DNA of 64,000 nt, taken from positions 32,001 through 96,000 of the forward strand of contig CAWDVE010000019.1 in the NCBI GenBank assembly GCA_963805625.1, written 5' to 3'. The position numbers and the translations under genes were made by a program. The stretch's first letter is position 1, and every line of letters begins with the position of its first letter. Below the pieces are notes generated by a model. The model ran no database searches, was not told where the DNA came from, and worked only from the letters and a program-made list of their open reading frames with translations. This DNA is from an uncultured Candidatus Rokubacteria bacterium. Lineage in GTDB: Bacteria > Methylomirabilota > Methylomirabilia > Rokubacteriales > DASRDR01. This document shows positions 22,137 to 26,441 of the stretch, in pieces.

Positions 22137-23067
22137 TCACCGCGACCGTACCCGTGGCCCGATCTGCGGGACCGGGCGCGCCTGGGCGGCCGCCGCGAAG
22201 ATCTCCATGAACGCGCGGGCGGCGGCGCTCAGCCGGCGTCGCGCGTGGTGGATCAGGTGGAAGTGCCGCACGATCCGGAGGCCGCGGACCCGGAGCGGCC
22301 GCAACCGGCCCGTCGCCCGCTCCCCCTGGATGGCGTAGACGGACACGAACGCCACGCCGAGCCCGGCCAGCACGCCCTGCTTGATCGCCTCGGTGTGCGG
22401 CAGCACCATGCCCGGGCGGTAGGCCACCCCGGCGCCGGCGAGCGCCCGCTCGGTCACCTGGCGGGTCGCCGAGCCAGGCTCCCGCAGCAGAAGCGGTTGG
22501 CCCGCCAGCTCGGCCGGACGGATGTCACGGCGGCGGGCCCACGCATGCGTCGGGCCGACGACGAGCACGAGCTCATCCTCCACGCGGGCCGCCAGGCTCG
22601 CCTCGGCCGGACTCGTCTCGCCGTCGCCGACCACCCCGAGGTCGAGCCCGCCCGCCCGCACCAGCGCCTCGATCTGCGCGGAGTTCCCGAGCTGCAGGGC
22701 CACCTCGATCGCGGGGTAGCGCTGCCGGAAGGCGCCGAGCACCCCGGGCACGACGTAGATCCCCGGGGTCGTGCTCGCCCCGATGGCCAGCGTACCCCGC
22801 TGCAGCCCCTGAAGATCGGCGATGGCGTGCCGGGCGTCCGTGAGCGTGGCGAACAGACGGGTCGCATGGTCCTCGAGGATTCGGCCGGCCTCCGTCAGGT
22901 GGACGACCCGGCCGAGGCGGTCGAAGAGGCGGGCGCCCAGCGCGCCCTCGAGCTCCCGGACGTGCTGGGAGAGGGGCTGGCTGGCTCAGATGGAGCGTCT
23001 CGGCGGCGTGCCGGAAGCTCCGGGCCCGGGCGACGGCCAGGAAGGCTTCGAATTGCCGCAGCGTCAT
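22137..23067 (-). CDS. LysR family regulator (CysL-like) with a one-base frameshift at about 22973-22976 (real or sequencing error)
   Basis: MTLRQFEAF..SFRHAAETLHLSQPA; removing one base of the G4 run gives LSQHVRELE..GTLAIGASTTPGIY..REPGSATR; 931 nt = 3n+1. Confidence 0.88.
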
Positions 23068-23210
23068 GGTTCGGGTTTCCCTTATCGAACCGATCTGAAT
23101 ATCCGATTGGACCTTATCGCACTGCCTCGCCGACAGTGCAAGGGCGGGGCGCTCCCGGGTGGGCGTCCCTTCGAGCCCCGGCGCCGCGGCCATCAGCGAG
23201 GAGGTCCACG

Positions 23211-23942
23211 ATGATCTTCCAGCAGTTCCTGTATCCCCAGACCGGGTGCGCCGCCTACGTCTTCGGGTGAGTGAGCCATGGGTCGTCTACGGTCGTAGAC
23301 CCACACGCCGACGACCTCGAGCGCTACCTGGAGTTCGCCGCCCTCAAGGGCACCAAGATCACGCACGTCCTCGACACGCACATCCAGGCGGACCATCGGT
23401 CGGGAGGCCGTGAACTCGCGGCCCGCACGGGCGCCGCCTACTGTCTCCACGAGGCTGCGGACGTGGCGTTCCCGTTCACGCCGCTCGCCGATGGCCAGGA
23501 GCTCGTCTGCGGGAACGTCGTGATCCGCGTGCTCCACACGCCCGGCCATACGCCCGAGAGCCTCTGTCTCGTCGTCACCGACAAGACGCGCGGGCCGGAG
23601 CCGTGGTTCGTGCTAACGGGCGACACGCTCTTCGTCGGCGCCGTCGGGCGGCCGGACCTCTCCGGCGCGGCCGAGGCGAGCGCCCGGGCGCTCCATCGGA
23701 GCCTCCGGCGGCTCCTCACCCTGCCAGACCACACCGAGATCTACCCGACCCACTTCTCGGGCGCCGCGTGCGGGAAGGGGATGAGCGGCAAGCCCATGTC
23801 CACGCTGGCCTTCGAGAAGCGGTTCAACCCGTTCCTGGGGATGGCGGGCGAGGACGAGTTCGTCGCGGCCCTGACGCGAGACCTTCCCCCGATGCCCGCG
23901 GACATGGCGGCCACGCTCCGCGCCAACCAGGGCCGCGCGTGA
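23211..23942 (+). CDS. MBL-fold metallo-hydrolase (persulfide dioxygenase-like), probable selenoprotein with UGA at codon 20
   Basis: RBS GAGGAGG; MIFQQFLYPQTGCAAYVFG-TGA(23268-23270)-VSHGSSTVVDP..THIQADH..TPGHT..TGDTLF..GRPDL..SGAACGK. Confidence 0.82.
23271..23306 (+). promoter_or_regulatory. putative bacterial SECIS hairpin
   Basis: Stem GTCTAC(23285-90)/GTAGAC(23295-300), loop GGTC starting 21 nt after the UGA; lower pairs TGG/CCA and GTG/CAC. Confidence 0.65.
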
Positions 23943-25374: not shown

Positions 25375-25620
25375 ATGACAGATGGCGCCGAGAAGATGAT
25401 CGCCCGCGCCCCACTCCACTACTCGGGGTCGGCCGACGGCTACGCGGAGTACTGGAGTCCGGTCATTCGCCCCCTCGCCCGACGGTTGCTCGATGCGCTG
25501 CCGTGGGATCGAGCAGGCCGGATCCTCGACGTCGGCACGGGGACGGGCGCGCTCATCCCCGACATCCTCGGCCTCGCGCCAACGGCCCGCGTCGTCGGGA
25601 TCGACCCGTTGCGGAACCGG
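25375..25620 (+). pseudogene. class I SAM methyltransferase, N-terminal fragment
   Basis: ILDVGTGTG..VVGID, then truncated. Confidence 0.7.
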
Positions 25621-25637
25621 TGTCAAGGTCCGCGGTG

Positions 25638-26441
25638 ATGCTCATGCTCGCCTCCTATCTCGCCGAGAACACGCGGCCTACGTATGAGCGCCTCGCGACA
25701 TGGCTCACCGCGCGCCTCGGCGAGCCCGCGTCCCTGCTCGGCGGCGTGGCTTGGGAGGAGCGTGTGGCGATGCTGGACGACGGGCGGGTGCACGTCGCAT
25801 TTATCTGCGGCTGGTCGTACATCCAACGCCACGACCGGCCGGCGCGGCCGGTCGACCTCTTGTGCGCGCCAGTCATGGCCCCGCCCCGGTATGAGGACCG
25901 GCCGATCTACTTCACGGACGTGGTCGTCCGCTACGACAGCCCCCTGTGGTCTTTCGCGGATCTCCGGGGTCAGCGCTACGCGTACAACGACCGCAGCTCG
26001 CACTCCGGCTACAACGTCCCCAGAGATTACCTGCTCCGGGTCGGTGAGACCCGCGGCTACTTCGGTCGCGCGGTCGCCTCGGGGTCTCACCAGACCTCGA
26101 TCCGGATGGTCGAAGCGGGCGAGGTCGACGCCTCGGGGATCGACAGCACGATGCTGGACGTCGAGCGCCAGCGGCGTCCCGACGTGAGCACGACGCTGCG
26201 CACCGTGGCCGTCCTCGGGCCATCGCCGATTCGGCCGATCATCGTGACCCGTGCACTCCCCGAGAATCAGAGAGAGCGGCTCCGCGCCGCACTCCTCACG
26301 ATGCACGAGGATGCCGAGGGTCGCGCGATCCTGGGCGACGGACTGATCGCCCGCTTCGTCCGCGTGCAGGACGCCGACTACGACCCGATCCGCGCGATGG
26401 TCGCCCGGGCGGTCGAGGTCGGCTTCATGGAGCTACGGTGA
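25638..26441 (+). CDS. PhnD/SsuA-type substrate-binding protein (no signal peptide)
   Basis: VAFICGWSY, YFTDVVVR, YNDRSSHSGY, SGSHQTS, ASGIDS. Confidence 0.82.
   Translation: MLMLASYLAENTRPTYERLATWLTARLGEPASLLGGVAWEERVAMLDDGRVHVAFICGWSYIQRHDRPARPVDLLCAPVMAPPRYEDRPIYFTDVVVRYDSPLWSFADLRGQRYAYNDRSSHSGYNVPRDYLLRVGETRGYFGRAVASGSHQTSIRMVEAGEVDASGIDSTMLDVERQRRPDVSTTLRTVAVLGPSPIRPIIVTRALPENQRERLRAALLTMHEDAEGRAILGDGLIARFVRVQDADYDPIRAMVARAVEVGFMELR

Follow-up and report, generated by a model that had tools for sequence, protein, structure and literature searches.

The 2026 structural preprint on Staphylococcus aureus CstB (PMC12934615) describes a persulfide dioxygenase in which the persulfide of Cys201 is oxidised to an S-sulfonate that is then resolved by the rhodanese residue Cys408, 26.8 Å away. 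It also describes another cysteine, Cys20, which is found persulfidated or sulfonated in crystals and by mass spectrometry, with "significance unknown", and which lies about 29 Å from the iron of the opposite protomer. Since the C408A variant is inactive despite the presence of Cys20, and given this distance, Cys20 does not replace the rhodanese in CstB. The same preprint calls Phe148 and Leu205 invariant in CstB-like proteins, and states that ETHE1-type and glutathione-persulfide enzymes bind glutathione persulfide and release sulfite.

Here we describe a gene from an uncultured Candidatus Rokubacteria bacterium that is predicted to encode a stand-alone CstB-type persulfide dioxygenase domain of the MBL fold, with selenocysteine (Sec20) in the place of CstB Cys20. 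The gene lies in a stretch of 64,000 nucleotides, the whole of which we refer to as the window.

Results

The gene occupies positions 23211..23942 of the plus strand and has 243 codons. Downstream of a ribosome-binding site, AGGAGGT (23199..23205, +; GGAGG-like sites also lie 5' of the start codon at most of the 30 listed loci), it opens with ATG at 23211, has an in-frame TGA as codon 20 (23268..23270, +), and stays open to a second TGA at 23940-23942. The read-through protein contains the motifs THIQADH (residues 56-62), PGHT (111-114), TGD (136-138) and SGAACG (183-188). A first-pass annotation of this DNA had proposed a hidden selenoprotein of 243 residues on the basis of this ribosome-binding site, start codon, in-frame TGA and intact MBL frame, all of which we verified in the sequence, coordinates and motifs included. 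A plain ORF finder splits the gene and gives a 223-residue ORF starting at GTG 23271. Contigs of X2 and of the RNA run X19 span the TGA region, with no bearing on codon identity or expression; the X1 contig ends at 23263. Scans for a promoter and a terminator found neither.

Pfam matches PF00753 alone in the protein, and NCBIfam gives six matches, none of which reaches its cut-off and none of which is a selenoprotein model. Among solved structures, the best matches are 3TP9 (E 1.6e-48, 40% identity) and S. aureus CstB, 3R2U (E 2.1e-41), and an AlphaFold model built from 84 sequences, with Sec modelled as Cys (pLDDT 93.7), aligns with these two structures at TM 0.92-0.93 and with ETHE1-type enzymes at 0.84-0.86. 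The predicted iron ligands His57, His113 and Asp138 align with CstB His56, His119 and Asp145, and Sec20 with CstB Cys20; further matches are Cys187-Gly188 with Cys201-Gly202, Gly184 with Gly198, Arg147 with Arg154, Lys189 with Lys203, and Phe141 with Phe148. Counting residues along the CstB alignment reproduces the numbering in PMC12934615. Gly184, Cys187, Gly188 and Arg147 are invariant in the 84 sequences. Three positions depart from CstB, namely Gln59 for His58, Cys13 for Gln13 and Met191 for Leu205, and therefore the chemistry may differ. With 243 residues and PF00753 only, the protein has no fused rhodanese domain and no equivalent of Cys408. The initial description of a persulfide dioxygenase-like enzyme stands and can be sharpened to the CstB type: judged from its sequence, the protein is predicted to work like the dioxygenase domain of CstB, without being a CstB itself.

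Two other assignments were rejected. An ETHE1-type dioxygenase lacks the Cys loop over the iron that is present in the window protein. Glyoxalase II, the database label of shortened products, is excluded by a TIGR03413 score of 78.2 bits against a cut-off of 200.8 and by the second His of HxHxDH being Gln59. As a marker of the Sec form, Gln59 is not strict, being present in some Cys forms, with His59 in some Sec forms. One subfamily (L063-L075, L176, L195 and related Cys loci) lacks Cys13 and has His instead of the Asp iron ligand and Ala instead of His181; its members, in which position 20 is Sec or Cys, may possibly form an iron site of three His. The genome also holds a second CstB-like gene (G000:C10:1686886-1687926; L137), a fusion of 371 residues that contains a single rhodanese domain and in which position 20 is Ser.

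A search of the class found a match in 104 of 151 genomes, and in all 30 of its best loci, the window's own included, codon 20 is TGA with the frame intact on both sides. The homologue pool comprised 185 distinct genes of at least 200 residues, left from 199 loci with a usable match after removal of 14 duplicates or short frames. Read from the DNA, the 121 single-domain genes divide at position 20 into 63 with TGA, 54 with Cys, 3 with Ser and 1 with a gap; the 64 longer fusions have Cys (32), Ser (14), Ala (7), Val (1) or a gap (10) there, and never TGA. Trp is found there in none of the 185. Codon 20 is thus TGA in 62 distinct genes besides the window's (47-100% identity), including separately assembled relatives at 81-92% identity, and the TGA is not peculiar to this assembly. 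Down to 47% identity, the stop in these 63 genes is always TGA, never TAA or TAG, with both flanking frames intact. Among the best 120 protein-database matches, the 43 that are full length all have Cys at position 20; the other 77 are without the N-terminal 20 residues, and the named ones are labelled glyoxalase-like. Unpublished genomes contribute one of the 63 Sec20 genes, which is also one of the 32 genes of a large Sec clade (L022, from G031), and one of the 64 fusions (L092, from G203); four more (G131, G067, G090 and G040) enter the 104/151 tally only, and no conclusion rests on any of them.

These counts bear out the pairing of Cys with UGA that the first-pass annotation had proposed as a check, and nowhere does Trp take the place of Cys. 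Because UGA is kept at codon 20 where relatives have Cys, the gene most likely makes a 243-residue selenoprotein. We regard the insertion of Sec at this UGA as almost certain, and the gene as a predicted selenoprotein.

The predicted SECIS hairpin, GTCTAC-GGTC-GTAGAC (23285..23300, +), has a 6-bp stem, a GGUC loop and a 20-nt spacer, so that its loop starts at the 21st base after the UGA, as originally noted; it is extendable by pairing of 23279-23284 with 23298-23303. The bacterial SECIS model in Fig. 2 of PMC13188914 has a G in the first two loop positions, a distance of 16-37 nt from the UGA and a stem of 4-16 bp, values with which the window hairpin agrees. The unusual A/T-ending codons to which attention had been drawn are indeed rare in the long ORFs of the genome (TCT 3.6% of Ser, GTA 2.6% of Val, CCA 6.5% of Pro), but the CCA lies just outside the 6-bp stem. 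The folding energy of the hairpin is not unusual (z-scores -0.89, 0.17 and 0.46), and its probability is about 0.7 when 35-45 nt are folded (-9 to -12.6 kcal/mol) and at most 0.01 when 50-60 nt are folded, where a competing helix is preferred.

The window hairpin is supported through conservation, not stability. A consensus-type hairpin, defined as a stem of at least 4 bp at -3 kcal/mol or below, follows 48 of 63 Sec codons versus 16 of 54 Cys codons; the median loop probability is 0.93 versus 0.14, the sequences being related, so that the test statistic overstates the difference. Three Sec clades have three different hairpins over the same AVVDP-type peptide, with loops of GGUC and CGUGU (both at 20 nt) and of UGGAU (at 25 nt). 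Within the Sec clade of 32 genes, whose mean identity is 72%, four codons in a row, the rare GAT and CCA among them, are identical in 32 of 32 genes, whereas elsewhere in the gene none of 42 invariant 4- to 6-fold degenerate sites is codon-fixed. The 14-gene clade of the window has two fixed codons in the hairpin region versus 0 of 43 elsewhere, and three Cys groups (17, 18 and 14 genes) have no fixed codon in the hairpin-region span. One compensatory pair is seen in the window's clade, U-A in 5 genes and C-G in 9, and is probably a single event. In the Terriglobia Sec clade the stems are weak.

The genome encodes tRNA-Sec (selC), selA and selD, the last of which also has a strong hairpin and an in-frame TGA of its own. 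Its selB is split by one base missing from a homopolymer (G000:C21:224970-224997; L011, position 1485). We attribute this frameshift to an assembly error because two short-read contigs (runs X1 and X2), otherwise identical, have the missing base; selB is whole in four of five relatives. All four genes of the selenocysteine machinery, whose absence would have spoken against a selenoprotein, are therefore in the genome. Among 61 distinct genomes with an in-frame TGA (67 handles minus 3 duplicates and 3 Cys forms; the TGA position is unchecked in 8 of them), 57 have selA; each of the four selA-less genomes has a TGA-containing selD, and one has tRNA-Sec. Since selA is common in the lineages concerned (20 of 22 other genomes of one order) and Cys forms occur also in selA-positive genomes, this co-occurrence is necessary but not discriminating. 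In the cultured Edaphobacter aggregans DSM 19364 (L063), a Cys form nested in a Sec clade retains the hairpin-region sequence, and searches of that genome found neither selA nor selD nor tRNA-Sec; a Cys form in a Sec clade without Sec machinery likely fits a Sec-to-Cys reversion.

Trees were built with positions 20 and 187 masked. They exclude one database protein, P0050, in which an N-terminal half similar to Cys forms is joined to a C-terminal half almost identical to the clade of the window; it is probably a chimeric contig or a recombinant. FastTree (197 rows) gives seven Cys/Sec changes, and IQ-TREE (44 chosen rows) gives six, three of them forced by well-supported branches. A single Sec20 clade is rejected by the AU test (p 9.5e-46; 44 of 197 rows), a result that fits several gains, or one early gain with losses, alike. 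The window gene falls together with Sec forms of Acidobacteriota and with Cys forms (59-72% identity) and not with the other Rokubacterial Sec clade (55-61%), a position likely to reflect gene transfer.

Directly downstream lies a gene for an MFS transporter (PF07690; 24025..25284, +), a candidate exporter of the sulfur product. This neighbour is conserved: among single-domain loci with a flank of at least 500 nt, it comes directly after the enzyme gene in 45 of 61 with Sec and in 26 of 43 with Cys. Upstream, a divergent LysR-type regulator (22137..23067, -) is frameshifted in the assembly within a G run at 22973-22976; the extra base is absent from X2 contigs, the X1 contig ends too near, and the gene is intact in relatives, so that the frameshift may be an assembly error or a break particular to the strain. 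A divergent LysR precedes 26 of 60 Sec versus 2 of 42 Cys loci, and an ArsR-rhodanese fusion stands upstream of 13 of 60 Sec versus 26 of 42 Cys loci. Of these two arrangements, the window shows the one with LysR, and a tblastn search of the genome with an ArsR-rhodanese query found no match at E 1e-15. Against the NCBIfam selenium metabolism-associated model (cut-off 250), the LysR of one relative scores 252.4 bits and that of another 220.1. A conserved motif in the gap between LysR and the enzyme (23080..23118, no strand assigned) is a candidate regulator-binding region, and a similar motif was recognised by eye in 11 of 12 related loci. On the 3' side of the MFS gene, at 25375-26441, a short ORF that appears by eye to be methyltransferase-like runs into a PhnD-like ABC substrate-binding protein, a unit that is not a recurrent neighbour among the loci compared.

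The genome contains 24 rhodanese-domain matches. Four rhodanese-domain genes (G000:C10:514655-514927, C19:147428-147697, C24:81216-81503 and C19:112647-112793) carry an in-frame TGA at the active-site loop or close to it, each with a hairpin after it, and one of them stands after a hydrophobic membrane-type domain. They are probably members of the catalogued rhodanese selenoprotein forms, and possibly partners of the enzyme. The selenoprotein-type SQR model has no match in the genome at E 1e-15.

A second Sec site is predicted in dioxygenase-rhodanese fusions of Acidobacteriota. In one such protein (P0122, 462 residues), a TGA stands at the loop Cys, the equivalent of CstB Cys201. These loop-Sec fusions (L093-L095 and L104-L114; for example L095:841-2226, minus strand) combine the in-frame TGA with a conserved hairpin and have Cys homologues: of 120 protein matches of P0122, 114 have Cys at the loop position, 5 are C-terminal fragments and the remaining one has a gap. 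They occur in 11 of 26 genomes of one Acidobacteriota order, 10 of which have selA, and in 11 of 11 the hairpin has 6-7 bp and an AGGU loop, with the rare codons AGT and GTT fixed. At position 20, the loop-Sec genes have Ser, Ala or Val. CstB-type dioxygenases thus appear to have two Sec sites, neither of them described in the literature covered.

Discussion

Our preferred reading, to which we assign a probability of roughly 0.6, is that this selenoprotein is a stand-alone CstB-type persulfide dioxygenase with Sec20 as a second, surface sulfur-carrying site. Judging from the conservation of the hairpin, SelB would almost without doubt read it 20 nt past the UGA and insert Sec. By homology with CstB, it is probable that one Fe(II) would be held by His57, His113 and Asp138, that the Cys187-Gly188 loop would take sulfane sulfur from any small persulfide, and that the Cys187 persulfide would be oxidised by O2 to an S-sulfonate, as at CstB Cys201. 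Sec20 may then pick up sulfane sulfur, standing in for the rhodanese Cys408 of CstB, a relay to which we give an even chance. It is possible, albeit doubtful, that Sec20 would itself be the nucleophile that resolves the sulfonate to thiosulfate, across the dimer or by relay with a separate rhodanese. The neighbourhood suggests that the MFS protein likely exports the product and that the divergent LysR likely controls the pair.

Sec is a more reactive nucleophile than Cys. It usually marks a reactive residue, and Sec20 therefore points to a function for CstB Cys20. We propose Sec20 as a stand-in for the rhodanese because position 20 is near-invariant in single-domain forms and often lost in fusions: Cys or Sec is found there in 117 of 118 single-domain genes with a loop Cys versus 32 of 64 fusions, a contrast among related sequences and not an independent test. 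Among full-length relatives of one fusion, 23 of 115 have Cys or Sec at the position. All 63 Sec20 genes are single-domain and none of the 64 fusions has Sec20, which occurs only in rhodanese-less forms. Against this proposal stand the inactivity of CstB C408A, in which Cys20 is retained, and the availability of rhodaneses that could act in trans. A redox pair between Cys13 and Sec20 was rejected. The first-pass annotation had placed the two close together, which holds along the sequence only; in the model, residues 13-20 form one strand with the pair at its opposite ends, and a redox pair is therefore unlikely. Cys13 corresponds to Gln13 at the iron site of CstB, and it is missing from 14 of the 63 Sec genes.

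Sec could also be inserted and yet serve at position 20 as a regulatory or protective surface site, such as a redox sensor or an oxidant sink, with turnover via a separate rhodanese. We judge this unlikely, if deserving of serious attention. The distance of position 20 from the iron in CstB and the requirement of CstB for Cys408, both from PMC12934615, speak for it, as do the frequent ArsR-rhodanese neighbours and the rhodanese-domain matches of the genome, including the four genes with an in-frame TGA. However, the near-invariance of position 20 in single-domain forms and its loss in many fusions would fit a catalytic nucleophile better, and so, by the usual role of Sec, would the six to seven Cys/Sec changes.

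It is improbable that the substrate of a Sec-containing enzyme is a selenium species (selenopersulfides) or some other compound, and not a thiol persulfide. "Selenium metabolism-associated" is the best NCBIfam model of the divergent LysR, but its score is marginal; and although Gln59 and Cys13 are unlike CstB, the CstB catalytic residues are all kept, and the same enzyme and MFS unit is found with a plain Cys and ArsR-rhodanese regulators.

More remote still is a UGA that acts as a true stop, whether in a pseudogene or followed by a restart at GTG 23271 that would give a 223-residue product. GTG directly follows the TGA in the window and its three closest relatives, 223-residue products are present in databases, and the hairpin of the window copy is marginal. 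Against this, the next codon is not a start in most Sec genes (none of the 32 in the large clade, counting the four commonest codons listed), residues 1-20 make up two strands of the modelled fold at pLDDT 95-96, and the exclusive use of TGA between intact frames in 63 genes is hard to reconcile with termination, which leaves a true stop very improbable. A UGA read as Trp, or a TGA created by assembly error, has a negligible probability, for although homopolymer errors do exist in the assembly (selB), RF2 is encoded in the genome, the gene itself terminates at TGA where its homologues terminate, Trp is absent from position 20 in the homologues, and the TGA is common to separately assembled relatives. 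Stop and restart, Trp and assembly error were all rejected.

Selenocysteine insertion into a stand-alone CstB-type domain would bring into the bacterial selenoproteome, in Methylomirabilota and Acidobacteriota, an iron enzyme of the MBL fold that probably uses O2; a likely sulfur-detoxifying enzyme family would join the known selenium-containing proteins. The Sec20 family also bears on how rhodanese-less CstB-type enzymes finish turnover. It is tempting to go further, and we put forward tentatively that CstB-type dioxygenases recruited Sec at two sites, with Sec20 having arisen or reverted six to seven times and replacing the rhodanese domain as the thiosulfate-releasing nucleophile, and the loop Sec being catalytic in the Acidobacteriota fusions. 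If so, the latter would be a selenium-dependent non-heme iron dioxygenase: with Sec as the catalytic loop residue, its O2-activating iron centre would act on a selanylsulfide. The loop-Sec clade, in which Sec takes the place of the residue oxidised with O2 in CstB, would offer a natural comparison of sulfur and selenium.

The suggestion that the family may be new agrees with the catalogues covered. No MBL-fold or dioxygenase family is found among the 119 entries in Table 1 of the 2026 catalogue PMC13188914, and the text and four supplements of deep-Sep (PMC12013277) contain no MBL, lactamase, persulfide or glyoxalase entry. A full-text literature search, with Haft and Tolstoy 2025, Deng et al. 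2026 and the BSepDB family table (PMC13326102) outside its scope, found no description of an MBL-fold bacterial selenoprotein. According to PMC13188914, the predictions of Deng et al. comprise 63 selenoprotein genes in a single Methylomirabilota MAG, together with unvalidated new candidates; it is somewhat unlikely that the present family is already in their candidate list. Several new predicted selenoprotein families per paper limit the surprise of the family alone.

Among known enzymes, the parallels are closest with S. aureus CstB and with the MBL-rhodanese of Alicyclobacillus acidocaldarius. CstB (PDB 3R2U, 28MT-28MY), as described in PMC12934615, shares the fold (TM 0.93), the His2Asp triad, the Cys-Gly loop and the position-20 site. 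The window protein differs in having 243 residues versus 444, no RHD or rhodanese domain, and predicted Sec for Cys20; its gene neighbours are MFS and LysR. The Alicyclobacillus protein (PDB 3TP9) is the closest in both sequence and structure and has Cys at both positions, but it is a 474-residue fusion without Sec. The ETHE1 and glutathione-persulfide dioxygenases (4CHL, 4YSB, 8ZBD, 5VE3) share the MBL fold, and several are single-domain like the window protein; 8ZBD has Cys at the aligned position 20, and 4YSB and 8ZBD are without the 8-residue Cys-bearing loop present in the window protein.

Among selenoproteins, the predicted sulfur-relay families in Table 1 of PMC13188914 (rhodanese forms 1-5, DsrE-like, type III SQR and YeeE/YedE) likewise have Sec for a sulfur-carrying Cys and a hairpin just 3' of the UGA, but their folds differ. 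SelTryp of Kinetoplastida, which we liken to the window protein from its description in PMC1557815, is also a selenoprotein with a predicted MBL fold, with rhodanese domains in addition; in contrast to the gene described here, it is eukaryotic and multidomain, and its Sec stands in a C-terminal CxxU tail and not in the MBL domain.
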